Shown here: positions 9,622 to 56,892 of the stretch, in pieces
Layout: each line of letters opens with the position of its first letter
How positions within the stretch are numbered: the first letter of the stretch is position 1
DNA from: a virus
Virus record (IMG/VR): IMGVR_UViG_3300034152_000556
Location: 32,001 to 96,000 of that record
DNA length: 64,000 nt
Strand: one strand, 5' to 3'
The notes under the pieces: generated by a model
Database searches by the model: none
The model's input: the letters and a program-made list of their open reading frames with translations, nothing else
Told to the model about the DNA's origin: nothing
Position numbers and translations under genes: made by a program

Positions 9622-9794
9622 TCTTTCTCCAATACTAGATCAGCTGGATTGAATAACACCTTTTCATATTTAGGTGGTGCTTTTGGTGGTTCTGCCACGT
9701 TAGTGTTTTTGATATATTTTTTTAAATATCTTCTGTCATAATCATAGTGATACCCTGATGATGATGATGTTCCGTGGGTGTTTGACCAGCTCAT
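9618..9794 (-). CDS. Small hypothetical protein (58 aa, below the ORF track cut-off)
   Basis: MSWSNTHG...VLFNPADLVLEKE*. ATGA-coupled to both neighbours. Confidence 0.6.
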   Translation of the reverse strand: MSWSNTHGTSSSSGYHYDYDRRYLKKYIKNTNVAEPPKAPPKYEKVLFNPADLVLEKE

Positions 9795-12784
9795 CGGTGA
9801 TCAGCTCCTATAACTGTTAAATATGCATTCAACAGCTTAACTGATTCTGGTGTTGTATCCAGATCATGTGATTCTTCTGGTAAGTTTGGTGAGATCACAT
9901 CTCGTATATATCTATTTTTCATATCAATACAATCTGATTTAGTTGTAAGAAATTCAAATAGATTACATGGTGCATCGTGACCAATTAGACATGCGGTTTC
10001 CATCTCACCACATCTCTGACCCCCTTTGTTCTTTCTACCTCCCAACGGTTGAAGCGTTCTTCTTGCATATGCTCCAATACCACGAGCCGCTAGTTTCTCT
10101 TCAGCGATGTGAACCATTCTGAAGAAATAGATATAACCAGTTGCTATTCGATTAAGAAGATGCTGTTTGGCAACAGGATCATAAATCTGTTGTTTGTATC
10201 TTGTTTTTGTATAAGCCAACGCTTGAGTTAGATCGTGTTCCTTAATCGAATTAAAAGGTGGTTGAATCAGAGTTAAGTTATTGATAAATTCTTCGTCAAT
10301 TGTCTCTGGTAGATTTTCTTTGAATTGTTTTAGATACCAACCGGATTTGGTTTTGTCAATAATCTTAATATAATCAAGAATATACTTTTTCAAATCTTTT
10401 TGATTATCAAGCATTGTCAATGCTTGTTTTTTAAGGTCTTCTAGAGAGAGTGTCAGATGCAACTCAAACAGTTGACCGGTATTCATTCTAGAGATAATAC
10501 CAAGAGGATTGATACAAATATCAACATGACGACCATCAGGCAACTGTGGCATCTTATCTTGTGGTAATATTCTTGAGATAACACCTTTATTACCATGACG
10601 ATTTGCCATCTTATCACCCACCTGAACTGGGCGGAAGTGAACACCGAACATCTCTATCTCAATTCCGTTTATGCGTTCCTTCTTAAACTTGTATTTACCA
10701 ACAAATGAAAATTTATCTAAGTCGTTTTCTCTGATAAATCGATTTGCTTCATTTTTTGGTAGCTTGTCTTTGATGATTTTACAAAGATATGTTTCTCGTT
10801 CTTTCTGAGCTTCGATCTTTTTTTGAACCCAATCATCAAACTCTGGAACATCGGTATTCCACTCATTTGCATAAATATTTACATCCGAAATGATCATGAA
10901 TTTTTTCGCTTCAAGTCTATTCTCTTCATTGAATACTGAATAGAAATCTTCATAGTTCATAGACTTGATAATTGCATATGGTGCGCCTTTTTGAATTTTT
11001 TCGAACAGGTCTGGTAATGGTTTATATGTGTTCTCATCAATTGACATGAGAACTTTTGAAGGTGGCAATGTAAAAGATAAATCCATAAAGTGAACTGATG
11101 TTAAAATTTGATCTTTCACCAAACGATCTGAAACAACAATGCCATCTTCGTAATTATCTCCATAGTATGACATAACGGCTGTAAGTAAATTACGCCCAAT
11201 GTTTATTTTACCATCTTTACAGAAGTTGCTCTCTGCAAGAATATCACCAGCTTTGAATTGATCACCTGTTCTCACATAGATGTTCATGAAGTCCATGTGT
11301 TCAACATATATTTTGCGATAAGCTATTATGAAGATGTCTACTTCACCATCATCATACTGAACAATTAAATATTCTTGATCTAGATGAATTACCTCGCCAT
11401 CCTTCTTTGCTCTTTTTACAAATTGCGTATAATCTGTATAGAGCCATTCGCAGCCTGATTGAATATAAGGCTGTTCTAGCTTTTTTAATAAGATTGCTTG
11501 TCTCATTTGAGACGAAGCCATCTGCAATCTTGTTGGATCATCGTGTTCGCAAAATGGTGTCATTGATACGGGTATTGATATTGGTTGTTCATCACATATT
11601 TCATTGGTGAATTTTAGATTTTCATCAATTGAAACATTAGGTATCATGTTCTGTAAGACACCACAGTTGTCTCGGTCTGGTGTGTCAACCGGACATATAC
11701 GACCAAACATTGTAGGGCATATATCGCGTAAGTGCTTTGGTATATTTTCTCTTTTAAACCCACCCGGACCTAATAAACTAACTCTCGAAAGTTTGGTTAG
11801 TTCTTCAATTGGGTTAATAGAGAAATCAAACTGAACAATATCAGACACGTTTGATTCGTTGATAATTTGAGTTGAGTTAATATTAAACTTAGGTTGTCTT
11901 GCCGTTCTATTTGAAAAACACAAATCAAACACATTCTTTGCAACTTTAGACAATACCATGTATTCAAAACAGCGTACTCGCTTGTTTGTTAAAAGCGTAT
12001 CGTCTATGTATTGAGTTCTTGCGGCTTCGATCAACTCATCAAGAATTGTCTCTTGTGTTAAGAACTTTGCAGTCATGACATCAATTTTTGGTATAATGTC
12101 AAGTGCATACATCACATCTTCGCCTTTCGAACGAGCGTTGTATTTTGAATATAGACGACCAATTTCTAGAATGAAATCATCTTGAGTATATCCTTTTGAC
12201 TCTTCGTAGTAGCTCACTAGATCAGCCACCATTTGCTCATACAAAGTTTCAGGTTTTGGTATTGAAGCGTTTTTAAGGTCAAAACGTTTTGCCATTTCCT
12301 CCATACCAAAATAACCAAGCAACATTAGAGAGAATGGTGCTTTGCGTCCAAGAAAGCTCATCTTCAGATATGGTGGTTCTTTATCTTTGAACAACATGAT
12401 TGTTGCCACATTTGTTCTAAGCTTGATTGATGTGCCTCTTGTTACAACTGGTATATCAAACATTTGAAACAGAGGTATCTTCCTACGACCATTAATGAGA
12501 ACGTAGTTGTCCTCGATAAGTTTTGGAATGAACATGCTTAGATCAATTTCTGATGATCCTTTCTTCAATCTTATGACAAGCGATTGTCGAATTGTTTTAG
12601 ACAATTCACCAGTAGAAAACCTTGAGTCTTTCAGATCAAGTTCTGTAACAGCAAACCCAAGGTCTTCTGCTGGTTTTAGAATTTCTCGAACGGTCGGAAG
12701 TATCTGTTTATAGTCGTCTTGTCGAAGAGTGAAGATGTTTCTTTCTGGGTTTTGAATCTTAAAGATTGGGTTTATAATCTTCAC
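9791..12784 (-). CDS. rpoB: Multisubunit RNA polymerase beta subunit, set 1 (probable non-virion RNAP)
   Basis: GRICPVDTPD, NYEDGIV, GDKMANRHGNKGV, SRMNTGQ, GGQRCGEME. Confidence 0.93.
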   Translation of the reverse strand: MKIINPIFKIQNPERNIFTLRQDDYKQILPTVREILKPAEDLGFAVTELDLKDSRFSTGELSKTIRQSLVIRLKKGSSEIDLSMFIPKLIEDNYVLINGRRKIPLFQMFDIPVVTRGTSIKLRTNVATIMLFKDKEPPYLKMSFLGRKAPFSLMLLGYFGMEEMAKRFDLKNASIPKPETLYEQMVADLVSYYEESKGYTQDDFILEIGRLYSKYNARSKGEDVMYALDIIPKIDVMTAKFLTQETILDELIEAARTQYIDDTLLTNKRVRCFEYMVLSKVAKNVFDLCFSNRTARQPKFNINSTQIINESNVSDIVQFDFSINPIEELTKLSRVSLLGPGGFKRENIPKHLRDICPTMFGRICPVDTPDRDNCGVLQNMIPNVSIDENLKFTNEICDEQPISIPVSMTPFCEHDDPTRLQMASSQMRQAILLKKLEQPYIQSGCEWLYTDYTQFVKRAKKDGEVIHLDQEYLIVQYDDGEVDIFIIAYRKIYVEHMDFMNIYVRTGDQFKAGDILAESNFCKDGKINIGRNLLTAVMSYYGDNYEDGIVVSDRLVKDQILTSVHFMDLSFTLPPSKVLMSIDENTYKPLPDLFEKIQKGAPYAIIKSMNYEDFYSVFNEENRLEAKKFMIISDVNIYANEWNTDVPEFDDWVQKKIEAQKERETYLCKIIKDKLPKNEANRFIRENDLDKFSFVGKYKFKKERINGIEIEMFGVHFRPVQVGDKMANRHGNKGVISRILPQDKMPQLPDGRHVDICINPLGIISRMNTGQLFELHLTLSLEDLKKQALTMLDNQKDLKKYILDYIKIIDKTKSGWYLKQFKENLPETIDEEFINNLTLIQPPFNSIKEHDLTQALAYTKTRYKQQIYDPVAKQHLLNRIATGYIYFFRMVHIAEEKLAARGIGAYARRTLQPLGGRKNKGGQRCGEMETACLIGHDAPCNLFEFLTTKSDCIDMKNRYIRDVISPNLPEESHDLDTTPESVKLLNAYLTVIGADHR

Positions 12785-15486
12785 TGAATTCTTTCTCCTT
12801 TTAGTATTTTATCAAGTACTCCTGAATAACGTCCTTCGTATAGTATTCCTTGCAAGATACTTCGCTTTGGATTAGAAAACGCCATTGATAGAATCCAACT
12901 TTCTTGATTTGGTACTGATTGAACACTGTAGTAATCTGGTTCAATCTCATTTCGGTTGTCTAGCAATCGCCATTTTCTGTAATTCTTCCACATTAGCTGA
13001 GCTACAACACATTCATAATGAACATGATGTATATCGTTGTCATAGACATCAAACAACTCGTCTACAATTTCAGTGTATGTTTTTCCTTTAAATTTATGTA
13101 GTAAGGAAGACACGGTTGCGAGATCACCGATGATGTCTTGCTGTCTCATATCTTCACTTTGTCTTTCGCCTTTAATAATTGCTGATCCTGAGGTATGAAA
13201 TGTTCTCAAAACCAATTGTGTTGATCTTTCACCCAGCGTTTGTGCAGCTAATATGCCGATAAATCTACTGTTTAAACTTTTATACAAATCACCATAACAT
13301 TTTGTACATATCTTTGGTGATTTGCATAGAATAGGACTTCGAATTTCGATAGTTTTTCCAATTAAGGTGTCAATGTCATCTTTTGTTATCATAGAAAGAG
13401 TGCCATCTGGGTTTTTCATCCATCGCTTCACTAACATAGAGGCTTTCTTTCTTGTGCTGACATTAACTTCTAAGAAATCGGTTGTGCCACAATCATCCAA
13501 CGCTTCATCAAGTTGAAGGTTTGCTCCTGTAAATATCAATTTTCTTGATAGATAGCCAGATGTTCCCGTATTAAGAGCAACATCAAGAAGCCCTTTTCTA
13601 CAACCATAGGTTGAGTAGAAAAATTCTTCTTCAGTCAATCCTTCAATTAGATTGTGTTTAATTGGGAGCGGCAAAATCTCACCATCGAAATTAGAGATGA
13701 AACCGCGTGTTACAATAAGCTGCTTAACTTGATCCCAACTACCTCTAGCCCCAGACTCTATCATATATGCATATTTAAAGTGTGATTTCATCTCTTTGGT
13801 TAGAGCTTTATCTGAAATCGCCTGTAACTGTTCTCTTACATTTGGTTTGTTATAGAGACTATCTCTATACTCTTTAACTCCATCGAATATACAATCTGGT
13901 AGAGACATGGTACACCCAAATAGGGTTGAATATTTAAATCCGATTTTCTTAACATTGTCAAGAATATCCCTTGTAACTTCTTTGTTATATGTGTCTTTGA
14001 TTTCATTCAGAATTCTCATTAGAGCCTTCTTATCAACGACACCTTTTACCAACCTGAAGTCTTCGGGGAGACACTGATTAAATTCGGCTTCTCCTTGCGT
14101 TACCTTCTCACCTTTTAATAATACCTTATCTTCAGATTGATGAAATTCGTTCTTTGTCAAGAAATAAACACCAAGAATAACATCTTGGCTTGGCGTGGTA
14201 GTTAGTTTTTCATTTGCTGGGCTACTCAGGTTATTTGTAACCAATATCTTTTCTCGTATTTCTGTTTTTGCTTCTTCAGTAATTGGTATGTAAACTGCCA
14301 TTTGATCTCCATCAAAGTCTGCATTGAATGGGGGGCATACTAATGGGTGAATCTTGATCACATGCTCTAGACCAACTTTTATTTTGAACCCAAGCATACC
14401 CAAGCGATGTAGAGATGGTTGTCTATTAAGAACACAAACTTCATCTCTTACAACGTCTTGACAGACTTTAAATAGAACGGGAGATTGCATATCAATACAT
14501 TGTTCAATAAAGTCAATTGCTTTATTTAAAAGTTTGAACTTACCAAGCTCGATGATTCGTTTTGCAACAGGCAGTTTATAGATTTCTAGAATCATCAAAT
14601 ATGGCAACACACATTCGTCTAAGTTTAATGTTGGGTCTGGCGTGATTACAGCACGACCAGAGAAATCAATTCTTTTACCAAGAATGTTTCCACGAATCAG
14701 ACCTTCTTTTTTTGCCATCTTATCAAGTATCTGATCGTATAACTCTTTGACATTTTTCTGAAGTTGTTTGAAATAAGTGTAGTACAATTGTTTTTCTTTT
14801 TTGATATCAATGATCGTATCTAACATGATATCGCGTTTTGTTAAAATCTGGACATAATATCTATTGATTTTATCCATCAATTGTTTTTGCCCACCAGTTT
14901 TTGATGCTGGTCTTAGGTCGGGTGGCAATACTATGACTTTATCAATCAGAAGATTGTCTAGATTGTCTTTGATCACTTGCCATTCTTCGATCTCTTCTTC
15001 TAGATATAAGTCAGCAATCGTTTCTACCAATTTGTAGATTGCTTCAGTTCTTTCAAACTTTTCTGTTCCTTTTGGTATGTTATCGTCTGAGAGAGTCACA
15101 ACTGGGAACCCTTCACTGTCTAGATACAGTATGCTTTTCTCGTTTTTCATAAGATCGTCAAGTGCTCTCTTGATTAGTTTACCACCAAGATCGACTAGCA
15201 GATCATAGAAAAGTGGGTTGACAACGGATATGGGCATAATGATTTTTGCAAATCTCTTTCTTCTTTCGTCGCTATTTTCAATTTCGACTTTACAATCTGC
15301 ACATACCGTTCCAGCTTTCGATACTCCGTGATATTTACCACACTGACATGTGTAGTTTTTTAATGGGCCAAATATCTGTTCTGAGAATAAGCCTTCGGCG
15401 TGAAACTTCTTTTTTCCGAAAACTTTTACTGAAGTAACCTCTGGTAGTTCTTCGCAAAATTGTTGATAGTTTAAGATTTTTGGCAT
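12781..15486 (-). CDS. rpoC: Multisubunit RNA polymerase beta' subunit, set 1 (probable non-virion RNAP)
   Basis: Zn ribbon CQC...CADC, GKRIDFSGRAVI, NRQPSLH, catalytic NADFDGD, T.TSGYLSRKL, LRTFH. Confidence 0.95.
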   Translation of the reverse strand: MPKILNYQQFCEELPEVTSVKVFGKKKFHAEGLFSEQIFGPLKNYTCQCGKYHGVSKAGTVCADCKVEIENSDERRKRFAKIIMPISVVNPLFYDLLVDLGGKLIKRALDDLMKNEKSILYLDSEGFPVVTLSDDNIPKGTEKFERTEAIYKLVETIADLYLEEEIEEWQVIKDNLDNLLIDKVIVLPPDLRPASKTGGQKQLMDKINRYYVQILTKRDIMLDTIIDIKKEKQLYYTYFKQLQKNVKELYDQILDKMAKKEGLIRGNILGKRIDFSGRAVITPDPTLNLDECVLPYLMILEIYKLPVAKRIIELGKFKLLNKAIDFIEQCIDMQSPVLFKVCQDVVRDEVCVLNRQPSLHRLGMLGFKIKVGLEHVIKIHPLVCPPFNADFDGDQMAVYIPITEEAKTEIREKILVTNNLSSPANEKLTTTPSQDVILGVYFLTKNEFHQSEDKVLLKGEKVTQGEAEFNQCLPEDFRLVKGVVDKKALMRILNEIKDTYNKEVTRDILDNVKKIGFKYSTLFGCTMSLPDCIFDGVKEYRDSLYNKPNVREQLQAISDKALTKEMKSHFKYAYMIESGARGSWDQVKQLIVTRGFISNFDGEILPLPIKHNLIEGLTEEEFFYSTYGCRKGLLDVALNTGTSGYLSRKLIFTGANLQLDEALDDCGTTDFLEVNVSTRKKASMLVKRWMKNPDGTLSMITKDDIDTLIGKTIEIRSPILCKSPKICTKCYGDLYKSLNSRFIGILAAQTLGERSTQLVLRTFHTSGSAIIKGERQSEDMRQQDIIGDLATVSSLLHKFKGKTYTEIVDELFDVYDNDIHHVHYECVVAQLMWKNYRKWRLLDNRNEIEPDYYSVQSVPNQESWILSMAFSNPKRSILQGILYEGRYSGVLDKILKGERIQ

Positions 15487-15492
15487 AGACCT

Positions 15493-15940: not shown

Positions 15941-15948
15941 GCTCCTGC

Positions 15949-17138: not shown

Positions 17139-17172
17139 TGTTCAAAGCTTCCTCCGATCTGTTTGATGTTTG

Positions 17173-17198
17173 GGGGGATTCCCCTAAGAGAATCCCCC
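17173..17198 (-). terminator. Strong hairpin after the Ubl gene
   Basis: GGGGGATTC/GAATCCCCC stem; no U-tract on the minus strand. Confidence 0.5.
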
Positions 17199-17217
17199 GT
17201 CCCGGTAATGACCGCTG

Positions 17218-18419: not shown

Positions 18420-18431
18420 TCACATTTCTCC

Positions 18432-22929: not shown

Positions 22930-23234
22930 GCTGGTTTCCTTATTCTGTATCTTACCTTGTCTAACTCTACCCAATCGGCTTGCTTAAATGGAATAGAACG
23001 CCATTCTTGTTTTTCCAAATCAAAGCAATGAATTATTCCATTTTTACGCATTAAATTGACGATTTTCTTAATATTTACAGATTTCGGATGTTGCTTTTTT
23101 GGAATTTGAGTAAAGTCTAAGGTGCATACCATTACTCGAATTGTTCCGTCCTTTTTCTTGAATTTGACAACAGCTTCTTTTGCTTTAGAAAGCTTTTCCC
23201 AAAAATCAAGAGCAGATGTGATTTCATCAGCCAT
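22926..23234 (-). CDS. WYL-like SH3 beta-barrel protein (DUF2693-like)
   Basis: VKFKKKDGTIR...CTL...FDLEKQEWRS. Confidence 0.7.
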   Translation of the reverse strand: MADEITSALDFWEKLSKAKEAVVKFKKKDGTIRVMVCTLDFTQIPKKQHPKSVNIKKIVNLMRKNGIIHCFDLEKQEWRSIPFKQADWVELDKVRYRIRKPA

Positions 23235-45249: not shown

Positions 45250-47132
45250 TAGTTCAATACCTTTTGTAGTCGTTTGAATTGAGGTTTGGTCAATCTTCGT
45301 TTATCCATAACCTTAATCATCTGTTTCACATCTTTCAGCTCTTCTTCAGCATATTGTCTTAATTTAGATGTAACTTGATAGCATTTTTCTTTATGTTTAT
45401 TATATTTGCAGAATTCTTCATCTCCGGTTTTCTTGATAAGCTTAATTGTATTGACCAAAAATCTTTCTCGTGCTTCATAGACACATCTTGTTAATTTTGG
45501 TCGATCAACATATTCTTGATATTCAATTTTGTCTTGAATACGACCATAATTATCTTGTGTTCTTGATCGCGTTGCCACCTCTCCACTGAAAGTTCTCTGA
45601 CACAAGTCGATTTCATGATCAAATTTATTAATTAGCTTTGCGAACTCTGGGTGCTTAGATATACCGCTTTCATATGTAGATGCTAGCCAAGCCAATGCAC
45701 CAAAGATTAGAAAATATGCACCCATGATAATAAAGAATGGATCAATCTCACTGATAAGCTCTTGGTGCTCTAAATAATTTTTAATTGTCTCGTTTTCTTT
45801 CACAACTCCTCCTGTATAACCCACAATAACATGAACCATCTCACGCCAACCAATCGGATTACCGATTCGGGCATCAACAGCAGATTTGAAGCCTCTAAAT
45901 GTTACATTTATGCTTGGATCATTTCTATATAAAAGTTTAATATAATTAAATACTTCTTCTTTGATTTTATTGTCAACTTTTGGATTTACAAACTTGTAAA
46001 GATTATCAAGAGATATCAGAATTTGTTTAGAATCAAATTTAACTTCGTATGCTGGTGCTCTACTTAGAAGTGCATAATCTATATCTCTTTTATTTAAATT
46101 TGTTATAATGATCACTTGACCTTTGAATTCGAATTTTTCAGGTAAACCAGATTCAGGTGGGCCACCATCTCCATAGGTCTGAATCATCTTCTCTCTTGGT
46201 AAAGAAACGATTCGCTTTTCGTAAGTATCGGTCACAGATTTTAGCAAGTTGATTGTATCTGGGTTTTGTAAAGGTGTATCGAAGTCATCTAATACTAAAA
46301 TCTTATTTCTGTGTCTATAAAGAAGAGCAAAAGTGCCAGGCAGACCAAGCGTTGCGCCCTTCTCAATAACATATTGTCTTTTTGGAAGCAATCCTTTAAA
46401 ATGAAATGTTCGTCTAAGAGTATATGTCTTTGACATTCCCGGTGGCCCACAGATAATAAGAGCGTTAGCGCGACCATCTATGATGTGTTCAATATATTGA
46501 ACAAGACCATCGAACATTGCAAATCCCGGTTCGTTGCTAGCTTGACCATAGAATAATTCTTGATTTATTTTATGTTCAGCTGCGCTTTCAATATAATATT
46601 CAGAAACGAAATTAATTAACTTTTTCATCAGAATGTAAAATTTCATGATAAATGGTAAAGCAATCAATATACCATAAAAAACCATGAGGACTTTCACAAA
46701 AGGATCAGCCTCTTTCCAAGTATCAATAAAAATTTGAATTCCTGGAATTTCTGTTATGACTTCTCTTCGTTGAAGTTCTTTTAGAGCATATCTCATCTCT
46801 GATTCTTTCATCATACGAGGAAGTTTATATTTAGTTGTTCTAAGATACTCGCTAACGAATTCAACAAACTTCTCTTTATCCATATCCTTGAATTGTATCT
46901 GAAAGGCTAGACGTAATCTCAAGTCGTACACATCCATAGAGTGAAGTGTATTAAATGCTGCTGTCTTTGAAGAAAACCCTAACATTCTCGGTCCTTTTGC
47001 TGTATGAAAGAAATAACGAACCTGAAAGAGCTTTCCAGACTTCTTAGTTTGATATGTATCTATTCCAGGTATACGAATGATCTTCTTTACACCAGGAAAT
47101 CTAATTGATTGTAAATTTAATATGAATTTCAT
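45249..47132 (-). CDS. P-loop AAA-like ATPase with TM segments, fused to a Cys-rich virion-family domain
   Basis: GPPGMSKT, VLDDFD, IIITN, ALLSR. Two hydrophobic helices. C-terminus similar to 60464-61021. Confidence 0.75.
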   Translation of the reverse strand: MKFILNLQSIRFPGVKKIIRIPGIDTYQTKKSGKLFQVRYFFHTAKGPRMLGFSSKTAAFNTLHSMDVYDLRLRLAFQIQFKDMDKEKFVEFVSEYLRTTKYKLPRMMKESEMRYALKELQRREVITEIPGIQIFIDTWKEADPFVKVLMVFYGILIALPFIMKFYILMKKLINFVSEYYIESAAEHKINQELFYGQASNEPGFAMFDGLVQYIEHIIDGRANALIICGPPGMSKTYTLRRTFHFKGLLPKRQYVIEKGATLGLPGTFALLYRHRNKILVLDDFDTPLQNPDTINLLKSVTDTYEKRIVSLPREKMIQTYGDGGPPESGLPEKFEFKGQVIIITNLNKRDIDYALLSRAPAYEVKFDSKQILISLDNLYKFVNPKVDNKIKEEVFNYIKLLYRNDPSINVTFRGFKSAVDARIGNPIGWREMVHVIVGYTGGVVKENETIKNYLEHQELISEIDPFFIIMGAYFLIFGALAWLASTYESGISKHPEFAKLINKFDHEIDLCQRTFSGEVATRSRTQDNYGRIQDKIEYQEYVDRPKLTRCVYEARERFLVNTIKLIKKTGDEEFCKYNKHKEKCYQVTSKLRQYAEEELKDVKQMIKVMDKRRLTKPQFKRLQKVLN

Positions 47133-47142
47133 CGTCTCTCCT

Positions 47143-50100
47143 TTATCTTGTTAACATAAGTGAAACAAAATATGAATTCAATAAATCTTTAGCTGGTGAT
47201 ATTTTTGCTTCACGATATTTTGCTGACCCTTTCTCGATGATTTCAGAAATGATTTCATCTCTTGTTATGTAATCATCGCTTAATGGCCCCATCATTTCAG
47301 CTAATGTGTTTACACAGTTGTATGAAATAAATGCATAAGTGTCAGCTTCACCGACTCTCTGACCTCCACCTCTTCTTTTTCCAGCTGTTGGTTGTGCGGT
47401 TTTACCAGCTGTTGGTCCTGTGCTTCTACCATAAATCTTGGATTCACCAAGATGTTCAAGTTTACCAATATACATATAACCAATTGGTATCTCTCTAAAT
47501 GTTGTTGTATTAAATTCAGGCAATCGAAGCTTATACCCTGTTTTTAAACCAACAACCGACAGAGCTTTCTTAATATCATTGTGGTTTGGTGCTTTAAAAG
47601 GTGGGATAATAATAGGAAAAAACCCACTCTTCTTTGTTCTCTCAACGAACTCATTAAATTTCACCCCTGATAATTTTTCTATGTTTGCCAGCATAGATAG
47701 AGTCGTTTTTTTGTTCTTACTTTTATCGAGATACTGATAAACTTTTTTCAATAAATCAATGATTTTAGCTTTTGTTAAATTTGGTAACATTAAACCAAGC
47801 TGTCTTGCAATTAACCCACAGTACGTCTCGTATACTTGCCCCATGTTCATTCTACCAATAATTCCAAGTGGATTCATCACCATATCAAGGGTTCCGAACG
47901 GTGTTCGCGGCATCAAGTTGTCTTTCTCAAGTAGCGAAATAATACCTTTGTTACCATGACGATTACAAAGTTTATCACCAAGACCAATTCTTAGCTCTTG
48001 TTCAATTTTAAATTTGACCAGAACACCTTTTATGCTTTCGCCCATGATTTTAAATTTCTCTTTTGGTGGCTTATCATGTCTTTTATTGGTACGTTTGATT
48101 AGGCTTTCGATTTCTGGAAAAGTGTTTTCTGGCATATTGGAGAAAACCTCAATGTCAACAATTGTACCGCCAGGACTTTTCTTTATAAATTGACCAGATT
48201 GAATATCTGTATCATCGTCTTCTTCAAATCCAATGAGTTGTTCAATCTCACCAACAGTCTTCCTCAATAGTGGTTCACCCTTTTCTAGTTTGTCACCAAT
48301 CTTTGCAATAAAAACTAATCGATCATTTTCTGATATTAAAACCTCTTCTTCAATGCCGTGGAGTGATGTCAAACTATCACTTTCAACTAATCTCTCATTG
48401 ATAACAATGCCATCTTCAAAGTTATATCCCTTATATGGCATGAACCCAACTAACAAAGGTCTACCCAAAGCGATAGAACCAGATGCCATACACGCACCCT
48501 CTGCAACAATATCACCTTTCTTTACAGATTGGCCGGTTTTAACAGTTGGTTTAAAAACACTCAGAGTGTTTTTTCCTGACCCTGATCTAAGATGCATGGG
48601 TGTTATATCGACAACATCTTTCTTACCAGCAGCGCATTTCATTGTTATTTTATCAATAGTTATTTTATCAATCTTACCGGTGCAAGGTGCTCTTTTGATA
48701 AAGTTGTCTGAAAGAACGTTTGTCAAAATAGATTCATATCCAGATTGAACAACAGGGGGTTGTGGGTTTTTCAACGGAAGCATTTGTTTTGCTTGATTTG
48801 TTATCATAATAACACGAGCACCATCATTGTTTTCAAGAAATGGTGTCATAACAGAACTGGTTGATAACATACCAGTACCCTCATCGTCACTTATTTTTTT
48901 AGCTTGAAACATACCACGAGATGATGTGATCAATGCATCAACCGTAAGCTGTTGCACAATACCAATATTGCCGCTTTCAGGTGTGTCTAATGGGTCAATA
49001 TTTCCAAAGTATGTATCATGTATATTACGACTTGCATTATCAATAGACCTCTTATCAGGTATGCCACCAACTTGCTTTCCAACGGGTGAGATTCTTGTGA
49101 TCGATGACATCTCTTCAATCGGATTTGCATATTCCATGCTCATTGAAAGCTCGGTCATTTGAAAGTCTTTCATTACCTTGGTCGGTACAATTGCTAGCTG
49201 AGCTTCATCATTTCCACCTAATATTTGCTCACGATATGTAGTATATGCTGCTAGAATTTGTTTCTGTGCTAAATGAACAAGAATTTCAGAGTTTCGTATT
49301 CTCTGATTTGTTAGATCGTTTCGAGGAATATAAGTTTTCTTAACAGCCTTATCAGCCATATAAAACATAATATCCTCAAGTTCTGTTGGTTGTTGTTTAT
49401 TCAGAAGAACCTGTCTTGCAACGGGGTCAACAATATTTTGAATCTTCAATTCAATTTGATATGTTGAATTAACACGCCCTGTATGTGCAATGATCAGGTT
49501 TTCAAAATATTGCTTCGATGGAAAGTCTCCTTCGATGTGATATTTATCTGGCGTACCATACTGAAAAGAATTAACAATGTATTCTTTTAATTCAGTATTG
49601 ACATTGTCAAAAATGACATACTCCTTTCCTCTAATTCTTGCCCAATGCTTTTCACCTTTTGGTCTCTCTGTTGCCATACGATATTTTATACCGTATTTTT
49701 TCAATGATTGTTCAAAACCAAATGCGAAAAACACCAGAAATGAAAATGGCATTTTATATGTCATGAAAGAATCAAGAAAAGTAACCTTTCTTAGACTCTT
49801 AACATTAAATCTGAAAGTTGAATATGAACTTTCAAATCTAGCTTCTCCTGGTTTTGGAAATGTAATTGGGTTGCGTATGATCTGATTGATCAAAACCTTT
49901 TTCTGACCGTTAATTCTGAATGTTCCCGTATTTAAATCAATCTTTGGTATTTCAATAGCTACTTGTTGTAATTTTCCAAATTTATCTTTTAAAGTAACTG
50001 TTACAATGCTGATGTCAGATTTTAAGATTTCACCAGCTCTTTGTGGTTTATCACCAATAGATATTGAGTGAAATTTAAGTGGTGGGTCTCGTTTTTCTAA

Positions 50101-51219
50101 GACTTTAAATGCGTTTGTCAGATCATTTCTGATGTTGGTTTCAAAATCAATTTTTCTTTTTTGAAAAATATGTTCTGGAGATTTATTACCAACCGCAGCT
50201 GTTGGATTATAAACAGCAACACGCGGGTCTGTCGTAAGACTTATAGTTTTCTCAGGCTTTAATAACTCATCAGAAAAATTCTTACTGATAGCTTTTAGAG
50301 CTTTTGTTGAATTTTTGGACGTAATGCCTTTTGCAATATTTTTTGCACCATCAAGATCGCCGCTTACTCTATAAAGAATTGCTGTTGCGGTGATTTTTTC
50401 GATATCACTTTTTGTTACATCTCCGCTTGCAACCTTGTTTCTTGTCTCTTCATCGTCTTCTAGAAAATCTGATACCGCACCCTTAACGGCCTCGTCGTTG
50501 TCAATATTTGCTTTAACTGAAGAAACAATTTTGCTACTTGACACTTGTGCTTCAGCTTCGATCTCATCTTCAGTATCCACAGTTTTTATGTTCCTGATAT
50601 ATTGAAGCACTCTCCTAAAGGCATAATCCCCGTCTTTAACCATTAAACGATACTTTGCACCATCTGAAGATACTGTTGATAACAACATTGTTTCAAAGAA
50701 AAGGTCTTCTTCTTTTTTCATATCATGAATAATAGGAAACACTTTTCTGTTGATGAAAGTGTTTAAATCTTTCTCAATATCGACGGAATATACCAAAATT
50801 TTGTTATATTCGTCTGGAAAAAACCTAAAAGCTGACTCCAACGCATTTTTAATCAAATAGCCAGCTCTTTGTCTATATGTTGTTGGTTTCATTCGAGCAT
50901 CAACAGCTTGCACATAATTTGATACATCAAAGATTACGTTTCGACCAGTTGGTATTCTTTGTCTGCTTGTGTAAGCTGTTAGCTTATAAGCTTTATAGAG
51001 CTTTCTTAAATCTGATGTTAAAAGAGTGCGTGGTATTTTCGTAAAAGGCACAACAACAATTTGAAAGTCTGCTGGTCTCAAATTAAGCTTTGGTAGATCG
51101 TCAATAAGAGTCGAGTTTTCAGAAAAATAGATTAACGCCGTTGGATTCTTAGGGTCGCGTCGAAAAATCACACCATCAACTACATGTGTGTACTGTCTTA
51201 AATTTTTAAATGGTATCAT
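47143..51219 (-). CDS. rpoB: Multisubunit RNA polymerase beta subunit, set 2 (probable virion RNAP), long N-terminal extension
   Basis: GTFRING, DPLDTPESGNIG, GYNFEDG, GDKLCNRHGNKG, GRMNMGQ, GGQRVGE. Confidence 0.93.
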   Translation of the reverse strand: MIPFKNLRQYTHVVDGVIFRRDPKNPTALIYFSENSTLIDDLPKLNLRPADFQIVVVPFTKIPRTLLTSDLRKLYKAYKLTAYTSRQRIPTGRNVIFDVSNYVQAVDARMKPTTYRQRAGYLIKNALESAFRFFPDEYNKILVYSVDIEKDLNTFINRKVFPIIHDMKKEEDLFFETMLLSTVSSDGAKYRLMVKDGDYAFRRVLQYIRNIKTVDTEDEIEAEAQVSSSKIVSSVKANIDNDEAVKGAVSDFLEDDEETRNKVASGDVTKSDIEKITATAILYRVSGDLDGAKNIAKGITSKNSTKALKAISKNFSDELLKPEKTISLTTDPRVAVYNPTAAVGNKSPEHIFQKRKIDFETNIRNDLTNAFKVLEKRDPPLKFHSISIGDKPQRAGEILKSDISIVTVTLKDKFGKLQQVAIEIPKIDLNTGTFRINGQKKVLINQIIRNPITFPKPGEARFESSYSTFRFNVKSLRKVTFLDSFMTYKMPFSFLVFFAFGFEQSLKKYGIKYRMATERPKGEKHWARIRGKEYVIFDNVNTELKEYIVNSFQYGTPDKYHIEGDFPSKQYFENLIIAHTGRVNSTYQIELKIQNIVDPVARQVLLNKQQPTELEDIMFYMADKAVKKTYIPRNDLTNQRIRNSEILVHLAQKQILAAYTTYREQILGGNDEAQLAIVPTKVMKDFQMTELSMSMEYANPIEEMSSITRISPVGKQVGGIPDKRSIDNASRNIHDTYFGNIDPLDTPESGNIGIVQQLTVDALITSSRGMFQAKKISDDEGTGMLSTSSVMTPFLENNDGARVIMITNQAKQMLPLKNPQPPVVQSGYESILTNVLSDNFIKRAPCTGKIDKITIDKITMKCAAGKKDVVDITPMHLRSGSGKNTLSVFKPTVKTGQSVKKGDIVAEGACMASGSIALGRPLLVGFMPYKGYNFEDGIVINERLVESDSLTSLHGIEEEVLISENDRLVFIAKIGDKLEKGEPLLRKTVGEIEQLIGFEEDDDTDIQSGQFIKKSPGGTIVDIEVFSNMPENTFPEIESLIKRTNKRHDKPPKEKFKIMGESIKGVLVKFKIEQELRIGLGDKLCNRHGNKGIISLLEKDNLMPRTPFGTLDMVMNPLGIIGRMNMGQVYETYCGLIARQLGLMLPNLTKAKIIDLLKKVYQYLDKSKNKKTTLSMLANIEKLSGVKFNEFVERTKKSGFFPIIIPPFKAPNHNDIKKALSVVGLKTGYKLRLPEFNTTTFREIPIGYMYIGKLEHLGESKIYGRSTGPTAGKTAQPTAGKRRGGGQRVGEADTYAFISYNCVNTLAEMMGPLSDDYITRDEIISEIIEKGSAKYREAKISPAKDLLNSYFVSLMLTR

Positions 51220-53174
51220 CTCATAAGCCTTTTTGCTATTGGTTTTAGCTCTTTTTTATAGTCTTCCTTACCAACAATTCCCTCAAACATTTTCTGTGAC
51301 CAATCAATAATATCTTCCATTCTGGTCGAGAGATTCGGTTTACCGCCCGTGTCTAAAACTAAATTGTAAATAAAAACATCTGTATCCTGACCGATTCTAT
51401 GAACTCTATCTTCAGCTTGCGATCTGTCTGTTGATCTCCACGGTTGATTTAGAAATATAACTGTGTTTGCTTCAACAAGAGTCACACCGGTTGATAAAGT
51501 CTGTATTGTTGCTATCAATGGGTTTCTTGTTGTGTCCTCTTTAAAGAGTTTTAGTAAACTTGTGACAGCACTTGATGTTTCGCCAAAAATAAGTATTGGA
51601 TCTTTTTTATTACATGAACTTGTTACATAGTCTGCTGTGCTCTTGACAACATCAACATATGTTGAAAAACATACTGTTTTCTTTGCACTTTTTTCTATAA
51701 TTTCACAAATAGGGCTTTTTTGAACCATCTTAGCAAACATTTCAGCTCTTAGTTTGTTAAGTAACCCTCCAAGAACCTCACCCATAATTTTCAGTTGTAC
51801 ATATTTTACAACAGATTTTGATCGGTCAAATTTCTTTTTTTGTTCGTTTGTTAATAATGGTCTCAATACATCTTTTTCATACTTGTTCGCTCTTGCTACT
51901 TCTTCAACTTGATATTTATCCATCGTATTGTAACCAAATTCTTGAAGCCGTCTAACAACGTCTAAATACCATTCAAAAGTTGCATCATCTTTTAATTGTT
52001 CTTTTAATGCATCTATAACCTCCCAATATTCTTTATGATAAAATTTCTTGTTTTTTTCGTAAAACTTCTGACGTTTCTTCATGTAAGCCAATACTTGGTC
52101 TTTAACTGAAACAAGTGTATATTTATCACTTCCTGGTACTTTGACTTTTATTTCTTTATGTGTTTTGCTAGGTAATTTCAAAACCTCAGATTTCATTTTG
52201 CGATGCATAACCATGCCTAAACGATTTTTTAATATGTCAAGTGCAACTGAAGTTTTTACACCAAATGCATTTAGAAAAATCTTTTGAGCCATGTCATCAA
52301 AGAATGGATCAATTAGCTGAAGGGAAGGCACCATTTCTGAGCCAAGAGCTTTGATTGGTGTACCACTCATGAGCAAAGTATCTTGACATTTGACAGCCTT
52401 TGCAAAAGCTAGCAGTCTTATTACTCTCTGAGCACCAACGTTTTTAAAATTATGGGATTCATCAACAATAATACCAACGTTCTTACTCTGAACCACATAC
52501 TTCAAAACAAGTTTTAATTTATCTATTGATTCATAATTTGTAATGTAAAATCTTGCTTTTTTTGGTTTTTCCCCAACAACCCATATATCTTGATTTTGTT
52601 TGAAAACTGTTTCAATTTCATTTTTCCAAACTGTTCTTATTGTACTCTTTGGGGCTATTACAATAATAGCATCTTTTTCTAGACCATGCATTAACGCTAT
52701 TGATGTAAATGTTTTTCCCAATCCCTGTTCAAATGATAATATATATCCATTCAAATTATACTTCTGCTTTTTTTCATCATATATTTGTATAAATTCTTTC
52801 TGATAAGGCTTTAAAGTATAATTAAATTCAGAAAATTTTCCAGATTTTACACGATTTGAAAAGTTCTGATTTATTCTTTTCATCCATGTTTTTTCAAGAA
52901 TAAGGTTTATCAATTCAGCATACTTTGTTTTAGTTTGAAAGCCAAATTTATGTCTTCCTGGTAGAAGACCTAAAATGTAAACTAATTCTGGTAGGAAAAA
53001 CCTATGTACTTTAATCGTACCACGCCCAAACATTCTAAATGAAACTTTAAAAAATTTTAGTAGTCTTTTTGATTTGTATATACGATATACATGACGAATA
53101 AATGAATCGGTCGGAAAGCCTGTGAATTCAGCTATATTTCCAGATTCGGTAACATTTGTATTAAAATATGACAT
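51216..53174 (-). CDS. SNF2-family helicase/ATPase
   Basis: EQGLGKT, VDESH, SGTPI, GVTL..A, QAEDRVHRIGQ. Confidence 0.92.
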   Translation of the reverse strand: MSYFNTNVTESGNIAEFTGFPTDSFIRHVYRIYKSKRLLKFFKVSFRMFGRGTIKVHRFFLPELVYILGLLPGRHKFGFQTKTKYAELINLILEKTWMKRINQNFSNRVKSGKFSEFNYTLKPYQKEFIQIYDEKKQKYNLNGYILSFEQGLGKTFTSIALMHGLEKDAIIVIAPKSTIRTVWKNEIETVFKQNQDIWVVGEKPKKARFYITNYESIDKLKLVLKYVVQSKNVGIIVDESHNFKNVGAQRVIRLLAFAKAVKCQDTLLMSGTPIKALGSEMVPSLQLIDPFFDDMAQKIFLNAFGVKTSVALDILKNRLGMVMHRKMKSEVLKLPSKTHKEIKVKVPGSDKYTLVSVKDQVLAYMKKRQKFYEKNKKFYHKEYWEVIDALKEQLKDDATFEWYLDVVRRLQEFGYNTMDKYQVEEVARANKYEKDVLRPLLTNEQKKKFDRSKSVVKYVQLKIMGEVLGGLLNKLRAEMFAKMVQKSPICEIIEKSAKKTVCFSTYVDVVKSTADYVTSSCNKKDPILIFGETSSAVTSLLKLFKEDTTRNPLIATIQTLSTGVTLVEANTVIFLNQPWRSTDRSQAEDRVHRIGQDTDVFIYNLVLDTGGKPNLSTRMEDIIDWSQKMFEGIVGKEDYKKELKPIAKRLMR

Positions 53175-53176
53175 GA

Positions 53177-53869
53177 TTAGACCTCGTATTCATCATATGG
53201 ATTATCTTTTGGCTCGTATGCTGCTACATCTTCTTCTTTTTTTTCTTTTATTGTTACATATTTATATAGCAAAAACCCAATTAGCATCATGATCAACCCA
53301 GCCACGATTACGATCCACATGTATGGATTTATCATGGTAACCATTGAGTATATTCCATACAGCTCTGGGTAATGAATTAAAATATGTGAAAAATAATTAC
53401 CCACTAAAGCTAAAATTTTTACAACAATGCCCCATTTAAGAGCAAATTTGCCAACGTCATATAGAAAAATTGCCAGTTTTCTTAATAAGTTATCAATAAA
53501 TTTAATTCGTTTTAAAAGCTCCGTGTTTCCCTTTGCTGCGTTTTTAACCTTGTCGTTGATAAAATTAGTGACTGTTAAAATAAGAGCAGCGATACTTTTT
53601 GTTTCGACGTTATTCCCTTTTACCTTTCTAAAATGAAATTGATATTTATTCTTAAAACCATCAATGTGTTTCTTTGAATATAACACGACATCGCGGAACT
53701 GAAATATCGGTAAGTTGAGACTCTGATATAATTTTGCTGCTCCATTAACATTCTTAGATGATATCATTGATATAAGTTTCTCAACATTTTTTGTTGTTAG
53801 TCTTTTTATCAATGATTGAACATCTTCTTGTAGATAAATATAATCAATATGTTCATCAAGATAAATCAT
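53177..53869 (-). CDS. Membrane-segment-containing probable virion protein
   Basis: N-terminal YIYLQE; two hydrophobic helices near the C-terminus. Confidence 0.65.
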   Translation of the reverse strand: MIYLDEHIDYIYLQEDVQSLIKRLTTKNVEKLISMISSKNVNGAAKLYQSLNLPIFQFRDVVLYSKKHIDGFKNKYQFHFRKVKGNNVETKSIAALILTVTNFINDKVKNAAKGNTELLKRIKFIDNLLRKLAIFLYDVGKFALKWGIVVKILALVGNYFSHILIHYPELYGIYSMVTMINPYMWIVIVAGLIMMLIGFLLYKYVTIKEKKEEDVAAYEPKDNPYDEYEV

Positions 53870-56800
53870 TACCGCCTCTCCTTTAATTCCGACAACTCAC
53901 TTGTTAATACTCTTTCTAGAATGCTTGGTTCTTCTGGTTCTTCTGTTATCAATCCATTACGAATAGCTTCATTGATATTTTCAAACGCCAACCCCTGAAT
54001 AAAACTTGTTTTAAAAACAATATTTTTGATGTTCATCATAGATGGGTTCCATTTTTTCCCCAATCTTGCTGGAAGTGATGGGTTATCAGCATCTCTCAAA
54101 ACTTGACTTAACAAAATTTCAAAATGTACAGAATCGGTGTCTCTCAATGAAGAATATATTTTATAAAATTTTCTAAATAAATGATCTGCGTCTTTAATAA
54201 TCTCGCGACCACCAACAAGACGTTTTACGTATTGAATCTGCTCCTTTGTCACATCGGTTTGTAATGTTGTCTCTAAAATATTTTCACCTTTTTCAAATTC
54301 TAGAAAAATATATTTTCTACCAATTCTTGTTAGACGTTCGCTATGAAACATAACTGGATAATCTAGAACAAGATTAAACATAGCATCTTCAGATTCTAAT
54401 CTACATACAACACCTTTTGCATAAAGTTCAGAATCATCATCATTAAAATATAAATCTTTTGCAACCGGATAGTCATCAACATCAATAGTAATTTTACAAT
54501 CTTGTAATGCCATCAATGTATTTTCTGATTGTTTTATATGTTTCTTGACCACATTTGGACTTGTTAATGGGTCATTTGACAAAATATCATTGATCATATC
54601 TTTTATAACAATCTTTACTGCACCACCTGTATGAAACGTTCTCATGATTGTTTGCGTACCAGCCTCACCAATTGCTTGTGAGGCAATAATACCAGCATAT
54701 GGGCTTCTGTGTCTTTCTAGAATGCGACCATAACAAGTATGACAAATCTTTTTTGACTGACAATATATTGGTGTTCTAAGCTTAATGACATCACCAGCTT
54801 TGTGTTCTGACGCTTCAAACTCAACTATTTTTCCATTTTTTAAAATATACCTACCCCACATTCTTTCAATCAAATCATTCGTCAATCTAGCATTAAGATA
54901 TTTTGTAACCTTACAATCTTTTAAGGTTCTGTCAATTTCGACACTGTTCAAAACATACGCAAGCTGTCTTGAAAAGTATCCAGTATCAGCTGTATTCAAA
55001 ACTCTATCGATAATACCAGTTCTAGAACCAGCTGAAGCTTCAAAATATTCTGTGTTTGTCAGACCTTCTGTATAAGAACCAGCAACAGGCGGCTGGACCT
55101 TACCTTGTGGGTCAGCGATCAAACCTTTTGCAAACAAAATTTGCCTTGGTTGCCCCCACCCCTTTCCGGCTCCAGATTCAACAAGATCATAAATCCCTGT
55201 ATTTTTTAGATGCTCTTTCAATCTTTTTTCAGCTTGTTTGATAATAGCATCTGCTTCTTCAGTTGTTGCATTTTTTAACCTTTCTTTTAAATCTTTTAGA
55301 TCATCTGGAATTTCAACGTCATCAATTGTAAAGGTTGGTGACATTAGAGTTGCAAACTTAAAACCAATGTCTTTGAGTTTTGAATACGTTTCGATGGCTT
55401 GCTCTTCTCCATACTTACTGATAATTTTAGGTATCATAAGATTGAGGTCTTTTTTAGTCATCGGTTTTTCAATAAATGGAAAGTCTGGTGGAAATGCGCT
55501 ATTTATAATCGCCCTTCCCATTGTTGTTCTTCTCTTTCGATAAACAACCGGGATATAGGGATCGTTTGCAGTGTCTAAACTTTTATCTGTAACTGAAATA
55601 GGAGAGTCTGGTCTTGCTACGTCTTTCATTATAATATAGATTCCAGCACACATTTCTTTTGATATTTCATATGTAACAGAATTTGAATCTTCACCCGTAA
55701 CGGTTCTCATCATTTTTGTTTTTAATTCAGCTTGTGATTCATCTGTAATTGGGTGATAGACCGCCATCGTATCACCATCAAAATCTGCATTAAAACCACC
55801 AACTTGAAGGGTTGATAGTTTCAATGTGTTCCCTGTGACAATCTTTGGTTTGAATGCGCGAACAGATTTAGCGTGAAGAACGGGATCTCTTTTTGCAATA
55901 ACCGCTCTGTTCATAGATACAACTTCTGCTGCCTCGAATATCATTTTTTCAAGCGAGGGTGGTATCTTATCACCATTGTGAATTGCTTTGAATACATTTC
56001 TTAGAGAATCTACAGATAACTCAACTTTCAAAAATTTGTTTATTTCATCATTGAGTTTTTGTTTATCAACTTTGCCGGAATAAAAAAGTCTATGTAATAA
56101 AAAAGGCTCGAACAAAACCACTGCCAATTTAAGTGGAATACCAATTTCGTTGACTTTTAACTCTGGACCCGGAGTGATAACTGATCGACCGGAAAAGTCG
56201 GTTCTTTTACCTAGAAGTTGAGAACGAATCAGCCCTCTTTTTTTCTGAATGATAGTTCTAACAAAGTTATCGTGGTCAACAACAGCCTTCTGAACTTCAT
56301 AATTTAAAAGATCAAACAACGGACCAGATTTTGGTGCGCTTTTCATCTGAATAGATTTTCTTAAAATTGACACATAATATTCGTTAATTGGGTCGATAAT
56401 CCATCTGCCATTTGACCCTTCGAAGGCTGGTCTCTGTTCTGGTGGTATTACTGGCACAATATCCACAAACAGTGTCTTTTGAGCAATCGCTTGTTCTATT
56501 TTTTTAATGAACTTCTCTCTTGCATCAGTACCAGCGTTAAACTTAATTTTTGGTAAGAGTTTGATGAGGGATGCGATACCAGTAACACCGTCTGGGTCGG
56601 GTGTTAGCTTACCATCTTTATCAAGAGAATATGACTCTTCTGTGCTCAAAATTTTTGGTATGTTTTTGCTATCAAGTCTACGAAGAATCTGAAGAGCTGC
56701 TGGGTGAATAACGGTTGTGTTCAAGTCCACATAAGAGAATGTTGTTTTTCTTTCTGTTGATTCTTCTGGCCCGAATATTATTTCAGAAAATAAACCTTCT

Positions 56801-56892
56801 GGATGCCATTCTCCCGGTTTTGACCAAATATCAGCTGATTTGACCGGCTTCAAATTCTTCTTGAACGTTGATAGGTCAAGAAAGTTAATCAT
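53869..56892 (-). CDS. rpoC: Multisubunit RNA polymerase beta' subunit, set 2 (probable virion RNAP)
   Basis: GLFSE.IFGP, GKRTDFSGRSVI, RDPVLH, NADFDGD, TADTGY, MRTFHTGG. Confidence 0.95.
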   Translation of the reverse strand: MINFLDLSTFKKNLKPVKSADIWSKPGEWHPEGLFSEIIFGPEESTERKTTFSYVDLNTTVIHPAALQILRRLDSKNIPKILSTEESYSLDKDGKLTPDPDGVTGIASLIKLLPKIKFNAGTDAREKFIKKIEQAIAQKTLFVDIVPVIPPEQRPAFEGSNGRWIIDPINEYYVSILRKSIQMKSAPKSGPLFDLLNYEVQKAVVDHDNFVRTIIQKKRGLIRSQLLGKRTDFSGRSVITPGPELKVNEIGIPLKLAVVLFEPFLLHRLFYSGKVDKQKLNDEINKFLKVELSVDSLRNVFKAIHNGDKIPPSLEKMIFEAAEVVSMNRAVIAKRDPVLHAKSVRAFKPKIVTGNTLKLSTLQVGGFNADFDGDTMAVYHPITDESQAELKTKMMRTVTGEDSNSVTYEISKEMCAGIYIIMKDVARPDSPISVTDKSLDTANDPYIPVVYRKRRTTMGRAIINSAFPPDFPFIEKPMTKKDLNLMIPKIISKYGEEQAIETYSKLKDIGFKFATLMSPTFTIDDVEIPDDLKDLKERLKNATTEEADAIIKQAEKRLKEHLKNTGIYDLVESGAGKGWGQPRQILFAKGLIADPQGKVQPPVAGSYTEGLTNTEYFEASAGSRTGIIDRVLNTADTGYFSRQLAYVLNSVEIDRTLKDCKVTKYLNARLTNDLIERMWGRYILKNGKIVEFEASEHKAGDVIKLRTPIYCQSKKICHTCYGRILERHRSPYAGIIASQAIGEAGTQTIMRTFHTGGAVKIVIKDMINDILSNDPLTSPNVVKKHIKQSENTLMALQDCKITIDVDDYPVAKDLYFNDDDSELYAKGVVCRLESEDAMFNLVLDYPVMFHSERLTRIGRKYIFLEFEKGENILETTLQTDVTKEQIQYVKRLVGGREIIKDADHLFRKFYKIYSSLRDTDSVHFEILLSQVLRDADNPSLPARLGKKWNPSMMNIKNIVFKTSFIQGLAFENINEAIRNGLITEEPEEPSILERVLTSELSELKERR

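Follow-up and report, generated by a model that had tools for sequence, protein, structure and literature searches.

Two undivided RNA polymerase cores and a predicted sigma-like factor in a myophage genome fragment share ancestry with the phiKZ/AR9 transcription system

The two polymerase gene pairs

The window analysed here is a 64,000-nucleotide (nt) stretch of viral DNA, bases 32001-96000 of one 108,708-bp IMG/VR contig (IMGVR_UViG_3300034152_000556) with 37% G+C and no terminal repeat, estimated by CheckV to represent about 35% of its genome. Two pairs of genes encoding beta and beta' of multisubunit RNA polymerase (RNAP), referred to below as set 1 and set 2, lie within it, together with a gene for a predicted sigma-like factor beside set 2:

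9791-12784, minus strand: set 1 beta, 997 amino acids (aa), unsplit; 4-nt overlap between its start and the end of beta'
12781-15486, minus strand: set 1 beta', 901 aa, unsplit; NADFDGD present, N-terminal Zn ribbon (CxC...CxxC) kept; candidate non-virion type
47143-51219, minus strand: set 2 beta, 1358 aa, unsplit; extended at the N terminus by about 330 aa that match no family
53869-56892, minus strand: set 2 beta', 1007 aa, unsplit; NADFDGD present, no N-terminal Zn ribbon; candidate virion type
57445-58899, minus strand: predicted sigma-like factor of the AR9 gp226/phiKZ gp68 family, 484 aa; assigned from synteny and predicted fold

A first-pass annotation, made from the letters alone, had described two compact, unsplit beta/beta' pairs, transcribed beta' first and with no alpha subunit visible, and in all these respects it was accurate. 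The four minus-strand open reading frames (ORFs) lie exactly where it had placed them, NADFDGD is intact in both beta', and beta' precedes beta in each set. The two beta', at 901 and 1007 aa, are shorter than the three bacterial beta' compared (1198-1407 aa). The alpha domain PF01000 gave no match in the contig or in 10 related records, one of them rated 100% complete, under conditions in which control genomes were matched (omega was not searched); likewise, sigma70 region 2 (Sigma70_r2, PF04542) gave no match in the contig and the same number of relatives, with control genomes matched.

In Pfam searches set 1 beta' matched Rpb1 domains 1-5 and set 2 beta' Rpb1 domains 2, 3 and 5, while both betas matched Rpb2 domains 3, 6 and 7 (domain 6 with E values of 1e-49 and 4e-48), each series in the correct order. 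Pairwise alignments located the bridge-helix and trigger-loop stretches as well as NADFDGD in both beta', and RHGNKG and GGQR.GE in both betas. The window thus encodes two complete, undivided catalytic cores, each in beta'-then-beta order. They are far apart in sequence, the two beta' being 29% and the two betas 26% identical. The best matches of both beta' in the PDB are bacterial beta' chains (3e-101 for set 1, 2e-66 for set 2). Catalytic motifs, bridge helix, trigger loop and the order of Rpb1/Rpb2 domains are all shared with bacterial rpoB-rpoC; the differences are an identity of only 25-29%, the shorter beta', the reversed gene order, the absence of any alpha match and, as described below, a position outside the bacterial clade.

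Relationship to the enzymes of phiKZ and AR9

Phages of the phiKZ/AR9 type also carry two paralogous beta/beta' sets per genome, a virion enzyme (vRNAP) and a non-virion enzyme (nvRNAP) (PMC7598289; PDB 7S01, 7UM0, 7OGR, 8QUE). The window resembles these phages, which have no alpha, omega or sigma70, further in the lack of any alpha or sigma70 match, in the presence of a gp226/gp68-type factor, and in the Zn-ribbon deletion and grouping that set 2 shares with the virion enzyme, set 1 going less firmly with the non-virion enzyme. It differs in that their virion core is divided into at least five pieces and their non-virion core into at least four, whereas here each beta and each beta' is one polypeptide; in having a T4-like virion module; and in that the sigma-like gene stands beside the virion-type pair. 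In the comparisons that follow, the virion and non-virion labels of AR9 subunits are those of its RefSeq annotation; for LPJP1, Madawaska and phiKZ the type, which the records do not give, was assigned from likeness to AR9 and from ORF size (Madawaska's own record labels one copy 'non-viral').

Set 2 beta' found its best matches in the N-terminal beta' part (beta'N) of AR9 vRNAP, gp144, and in phiKZ ORF 188494-189198. Against virion-type beta'N it scored 78 bits in AR9, 85 in LPJP1 and 60 in Madawaska, compared with 20, 31 and 21 bits for set 1 beta', and the phiKZ virion-type beta'N was found by set 2 beta' only. Similarly, set 2 beta, unlike its set 1 counterpart, found the virion-type beta ORFs AR9 gp188 exon 1, LPJP1 1444-aa and Madawaska 1031-aa, and both queries found the phiKZ 1474-aa beta ORF (48 bits for set 2, 40 for set 1). 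Set 1 beta matched AR9 nvRNAP betaC gp088 (1e-33) and betaN gp104, and set 1 beta' had its best AR9 matches in two nvRNAP pieces, beta'N gp269 and beta'C gp153. Since bacterial beta', too, gives the AR9 nvRNAP beta'N a higher score than its vRNAP counterpart, it is only the leaning of set 2 towards the virion enzyme that carries information. The Zn-ribbon deletion of set 2-like beta' coincides in position, in a MAFFT alignment, with that of all five vRNAP beta'N sampled.

Trees were built under LG+C20+F+G4 with posterior mean site frequencies (PMSF), rooted on bacteria as outgroup, with branch support from the Shimodaira-Hasegawa-like approximate likelihood ratio test (SH-aLRT). The set 1-like and set 2-like proteins fell with the two phiKZ-type enzymes in a single clade (support 100 for beta'N, 99 for beta'C, 98-100 for the combined N- and C-terminal beta' parts), with bacteria and the polymerases of Rhizobium phage RHph_Y65 (Kleczkowskaviridae) and Vibrio phage Va2 outside. 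The beta' of these two phages is, as here, unsplit, retains a Zn ribbon and is 25-28% identical to both beta' of the window; each of their genomes yielded only one beta', and they branch outside the joint clade. The 18 nearest bacterial representatives made up a clade of their own with support of 99-100. The first-pass annotation had named nesting of either set within a bacterial rpoBC clade as an outcome that would overturn its reading; neither set nests there, and the phylogeny it called for, with cellular, phiKZ/AR9 and other phage RNAPs, places both, as ancient lineages, in one clade with the phiKZ/AR9-type enzymes.

Within the joint clade, set 2 grouped with vRNAP with support of 96 for beta'N, 98 and 92 for combined beta', 97 for beta and 99.2 for the concatenation. 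Set 1 grouped with nvRNAP in the beta'N (91) and beta (93) trees, and in the concatenation nvRNAP was nested within set 1. Long-branch attraction should join the virion to the non-virion enzymes; since the two separate, an artefact of this kind is argued against. For the approximately unbiased (AU) test, constrained trees were obtained by fast searches under a simpler model and then compared. With the beta+beta' concatenation (42 x 1961) under LG+C20+F+G4, the P values were 0.038 for vRNAP and nvRNAP as one clade, 0.041 for set 1 with set 2, and 0.047 for vRNAP with set 1. All three alternative groupings are rejected, which we take as marginal support and not as proof. Set 2 may accordingly be regarded, with marginal support, as the orthologue of the virion RNAP, and set 1, also marginally and less firmly, as that of the non-virion RNAP.

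The sigma-like factor

The 484-aa gene is the first of a conserved cassette of which set 2 forms part, lies upstream of the polymerase genes and had escaped the first-pass annotation. Neither phmmer nor a profile search of the PDB found anything for its product, and AR9 gp226 as query retrieved nothing from 12 records. An AlphaFold2 model built from 10 homologues (mean predicted local distance difference test score, 79) returned only three matches in a Foldseek search of the PDB at E<=1e-3, namely 7s01_A, 7um0_A and 8que_B, the best being to 7s01_A (E 2.3e-5). Chain A of 7S01 and 7UM0, the AR9 non-virion holoenzyme, comprises 463 and 459 residues, a length that fits the 464-aa AR9 gene annotated 'non-virion RNAP subunit'; chain B of 8QUE belongs to the phiKZ non-virion RNAP. 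VIA-align gave Z scores of 18.7 and 17.9 to the two AR9 chains and 9.0 to that of phiKZ. Next came bacterial sigma region 2 (Z 5.4-6.4), for residues ~110-245. At the sequence level support is weak, hhalign against AR9 gp226 giving E 0.01 over 145 collinear columns. By its predicted fold, the 484-aa protein is a sigma-like factor of the gp226/gp68 type.

Occurrence and gene order in related contigs

A profile search of 25 IMG/VR records for both types of beta' found set 1-type and set 2-type together in 13 (G001-G012 and G014), at similar spacing; relatives rated 59-100% complete all carry both pairs, with the exception of G017. This co-occurrence, together with the conserved gene order around each pair, shows that the two sets were not brought together by misassembly. 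In the loci examined beta follows beta' in both sets. Set 1 is surrounded by the recurrent order ThiF-Ubl-282aa-beta'-beta-FolE2-...-TerL, in which single flanking genes recur in 24-45 of 59 loci and TerL, the large terminase, in eight, within reach of the 10-kb flanks. Set 2 belongs to a recurrent cassette, 484aa-188aa-beta'-beta-200aa. The neighbours of set 2 in the window are:

44647-45249, minus strand: 200-aa ORF, downstream of set 2 beta in relatives; no PHROG family
45249-47132: 627-aa ORF between set 2 beta and the 200-aa ORF; no PDB or Pfam match
51216-53174, minus strand: SNF2/ResIII helicase, 652 aa, between set 2 beta' and beta; Pfam match
53177-53869, minus strand: 230-aa ORF flanked by set 2 beta' and the helicase; no family in Pfam or PHROG
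56892-57458, minus strand: 188-aa ORF after the sigma-like gene and before set 2 beta'; conserved, no family

Homologues of the 188-aa ORF occupy the equivalent position in seven loci (L002, L063, L064, L065, L066, L067 and L070), and those of the 200-aa ORF occur in seven related loci, the latter being separated from beta in the window by the 627-aa ORF. In the closest relative (G001), set 2 beta directly follows beta' with no inserted genes; the 230-aa ORF has no homologue in the set 2 flanks of relatives, and the helicase is present in only three of 11. The 230-aa ORF and the SNF2 helicase are therefore an insertion particular to the window, and the helicase is an accessory gene and not a conserved partner of set 2. 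It shares 32% identity with phiKZ ORF 210842-212731 along the whole protein (4e-103), a far closer match than the polymerases show, and was absent from AR9, Madawaska, LPJP1 and SPN3US, a distribution that suggests a mobile accessory gene common to distant jumbo phages.

The two families differ in breadth. For set 1 beta', metagenomes contain more than 100 clusters (made at 90% identity) that are 68-73% identical to it, on contigs of up to 309 kb. The set 2 beta' family is very diverse, ranging from 57% down to ~29% identity over the full length. Set 2 beta' is whole in six relatives (999-1015 aa), divided into pieces of ~781 and ~240 aa in four and into three pieces in G014; in G008 (356 kb, rated 100% complete) both beta' are in pieces. 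The relatives noted for these states are G002, G003, G006, G010, G014 and G008, with set 2 split in G002, G008 and G014, and metagenomic representatives of set 2-type beta' include pieces spanning residues 1-376 and 291/371-1000. With marginal support, the relatives of set 2 may be viewed as a series of fragmentation states.

Two further groups of sequences were encountered. In a separate phage group (G018-G025; 178-210 kb, 91-100% complete) there is a single RNAP with the beta' region in one ORF of 1834-2399 aa, and other contigs with similarly weak beta' matches have ORFs of 2021-2200 aa that match beta too; these long single ORFs suggest fused beta-beta' genes. Three set 1-type beta' at 68-70% identity (P0095, P0103 and P0117) are entered at NCBI under Candidatus Thorarchaeota/Heimdallarchaeaceae metagenome-assembled genomes (MAGs), one of them on a 255-kb contig, and are probably from phage contigs binned into Asgard MAGs.

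The source genome and the published record

Nearly all genes of the window are on the minus strand, and by a crude gene call about 96% of the contig is coding, with very few intergenic gaps. In a promoter search most of the 'gaps' in the window looked coding and no common motif was seen. The terminase gene lies at one end of the window:

2186-3844, the conserved block of set 1 running into it: TerL, T4-type large terminase; PHROG and tblastn matches

Outside the window, PHROG matches identify a tail sheath, a baseplate wedge, a prohead protease and a tape-measure-like protein; PHROG scans also found SbcCD, topoisomerase II, helicases, a UvsX-like recombinase and ribonucleotide reductase. The nearest TerL relatives among isolates in tblastn searches were Flavobacterium phage immuto, Microcystis phage Mel-JY01 and cyanomyoviruses, joined by two huge uncultured phages; phiKZ-like phages were not among the nearest matches. 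From this gene set and the TerL relatives, the window is part of an uncultured myophage of about 300 kb with a T4-type terminase and a contractile tail. The phage belongs to the mReC clade.

The mReC (multi-subunit-RNAP-encoding Caudovirales) were described from metagenomes by Weinheimer & Aylward (2020, Nat Commun 11:4506; PMC7481178) as phages with full-length beta and beta' (>=800 aa, NADxDGD) and T4-type TerL and major capsid protein (MCP). On the present contig beta and beta' are separate ORFs, all of them longer than 800 aa; NADFDGD stands in both beta', and both of the published size classes and a T4-type TerL are present. The clade is delimited by TerL together with MCP (PF03237/VOG01069; PF07068), and no major capsid gene was located in this ~35%-complete contig. 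Two relatives (G007 and G009) correspond to mReC contigs, with set 1 beta' 60-61% identical to that of the window; the contig itself is not shown among the published set. The fragment is a member of this clade.

Supplementary Data 2 of that paper contains two size classes, beta ~1000/beta' ~900 aa and beta ~1360/beta' ~1005 aa, and lists both pairs for three contigs (149,482, 308,335 and 277,139 bp). The words 'copies', 'two RNAP', 'phiKZ' and 'virion' do not occur in its text, which discusses neither two polymerases per genome nor virion packaging, and jumbo-phage RNAPs were omitted from its tree according to PMC7598289. Both the lineage and the bare existence of two pairs are therefore already on record, and the lineage inferred in the first-pass annotation is not an unrecognised one; the meaning of the two pairs is not discussed in the papers searched. 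Elsewhere, Hwang et al. (2023) remark briefly that one viral MAG has a second beta fragment. Three apparent precedents proved not to be so: no RNAP genes are reported in the moraphage paper (PMC12619734), multisubunit RNAP is mentioned only for phiKZ-like bins in the paper on marine jumbo phages (PMC9123017), and in Escherichia phage EP_H11, the apparent best-covering isolate match, beta' is split across several genes, a different architecture. To the published record the present work adds the co-occurrence in 13 contigs, the Zn-ribbon deletion, the beta'N and beta trees, the concatenated AU tests and the sigma-like fold match.

Some other features of the contig may be mentioned. Immediately downstream of set 1 beta is a FolE2-type GTP cyclohydrolase I (8698-9621, minus strand; Pfam 9e-56), which keeps this position in 45 of 59 related loci. 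A radical-SAM protein (23227-24267, minus strand) faintly matches a QueE-like PHROG (E ~1e-3), and the two might point to a 7-deazaguanine pathway, possibly for DNA modification. Two G+C-rich hairpins on the minus strand resemble intrinsic terminators: one at 5133-5214, with a T run after it, past a 420-aa gene, and one at 17139-17217, past a 161-aa Ubl-like gene. PhuZ tubulin (PF00091), found in many but not all Chimalliviridae, gave no match above cut-off in 11 records (13 of 14 controls matched), and chimallin (PF25677) gave nothing in 11 records, with a model that also misses SPN3US and detects only phiKZ.

Discussion

The two undivided, alpha-less cores and the gp226/gp68-type factor share ancestry with the phiKZ/AR9 transcription system and not with bacterial rpoBC, and the two cores are old paralogues. 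Probably, the phage encodes a complete transcription apparatus of its own, in which set 2 is the virion-type and set 1 the non-virion-type enzyme, the two having separated after one duplication. One acquisition and one duplication would then have preceded the splitting seen in phiKZ and AR9. By analogy with those phages, set 2 would be made late, packaged and injected with the DNA, and would serve to transcribe the early genes independently of host polymerase; middle and late genes would then fall to set 1, probably together with the 484-aa factor. To regard set 2 as virion-type is reasonable in the light of the trees, the common Zn-ribbon deletion and the AU tests. This part of the first-pass annotation survives on homology, and its supporting argument, that set 2 lies in a late and set 1 in an early block, does not, set 1 being located in a conserved block that runs into TerL and set 2 among unknown genes upstream of replication genes.

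Several observations weigh against this explanation. Although the phiKZ nvRNAP beta'N keeps the Zn ribbon, three of the four nvRNAP beta'N sampled are without it, so loss of the ribbon is recurrent. In the combined beta' trees nvRNAP is basal and not inside set 1, and the beta'C tree is unresolved. In AU tests of beta'N alone the joining of vRNAP and nvRNAP in one clade was not rejected (P 0.238). With beta alone under LG+F+G4 the corresponding value was 0.166, with 0.061 for set 1 with set 2 and 0.055 for vRNAP with set 1; for beta+beta' under the same model these three values were 0.061, 0.049 and 0.064, respectively. The C20 test may itself be somewhat liberal, because its constrained trees came from fast searches under a simpler model. 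All the sequences are very divergent, and introns or additional splits leave several of the phiKZ-like rows incomplete. TerL is T4-like and not phiKZ-like, and the polymerase and virion genes therefore have no one simple shared history. The sigma-like gene adjoins set 2, whereas the AR9/phiKZ factor belongs to the non-virion enzyme, and what we propose for packaging and timing of expression is drawn from homology only.

The organization of the reference genes may be noted at this point. In phiKZ (locus L222, 44000-51500) the DFDGD of the non-virion beta' is in a separate ORF, downstream of a 429-aa beta'N ORF and a 334-aa ORF, and the AR9 RNAP genes (loci L028, L029 and L251) are annotated as joins of two to six exons, with homing endonucleases.

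The strongest competing explanation is that the duplication took place within mReC, independently of that which gave rise to the virion and non-virion enzymes of phiKZ/AR9, the likeness of set 2 to vRNAP being due to convergence or to a common fast rate. It would accommodate the single-gene AU tests, which do not reject vRNAP with nvRNAP or set 1 with set 2 as one clade, as well as the unresolved beta'C tree, the recurrent loss of the Zn ribbon and the T4-like structural genes. It has to contend with the separation of virion from non-virion enzymes in the beta'N, beta and concatenated trees, where long-branch attraction would have been expected to unite them, with the concatenated test under LG+C20, which rejects both of the groupings it would predict, and with scores of set 2 three- to fourfold above those of set 1 against vRNAP beta'N, a preference for which general conservation alone does not account. 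On balance we find an independent duplication doubtful.

A different possibility is that set 1 and set 2 are both of non-virion type, each responsible for its own part of the infection programme (for example early/middle versus late, or different template states), with host RNAP acting early and neither enzyme packaged. Set 2 is not embedded among recognizable structural genes, and next to it lies the gene for the sigma-like factor, which in AR9 and phiKZ is part of the non-virion enzyme. However, the orthology signals of set 2 point to experimentally defined virion RNAP subunits, and no sigma70-type factor able to redirect host RNAP was found in the contig and 10 relatives; we therefore consider such a division of labour improbable. 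Recent capture of bacterial rpoBC for one or both pairs, or a chimera of two single-polymerase phages, might be suspected from the bacterial beta' that are the best PDB and contaminant matches of both beta', and is already refuted by the trees, in which 18 bacterial representatives exclude both sets, and by the occurrence of both pairs at similar spacing in 13 related contigs, quite apart from the low identity (25-29%) and a beta'-beta order that is the reverse of rpoB-rpoC in bacterial loci.

If set 2 is of virion type and set 1 of non-virion type, it is of interest to consider how the fragmented enzymes arose. Reviews of 2020 (PMC7598289) and 2026 (PMC13282480) state that it is not known if the virion and non-virion RNAPs came from a duplication or from two acquisitions, and a published analysis has proposed that the split subunits are remnants of replicons that preceded the last universal common ancestor (LUCA). 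We lean, with modest confidence, towards the proposal that mReC preserves the phiKZ/AR9 two-polymerase system (virion core, non-virion core and factor) in an undivided form that arose once, before fragmentation. The fragmented enzymes would then be derived, and not pre-LUCA relics; the module would have moved between unrelated virion modules, and the stepwise splits of set 2 beta' would be snapshots of the process. That the unsplit state is possibly the more ancestral, as suggested in the first-pass annotation for what is now seen to be a published lineage, remains the parsimonious reading, because the RNAPs of bacteria and of phages RHph_Y65 and Va2 are unsplit.

The finding bears on the origin of the fragmented phiKZ/AR9-type enzymes in that both enzymes occur unsplit in a large, diverse clade from the environment, which, with some members splitting set 2 beta' into two or three pieces, offers an outgroup-like series with which to test duplication against two acquisitions. 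No virion RNAP had been purified as of a 2020 review (PMC7598289). The unsplit pairs are simpler than five-piece complexes, and for expression, structure and promoter work would involve only two genes and one factor.

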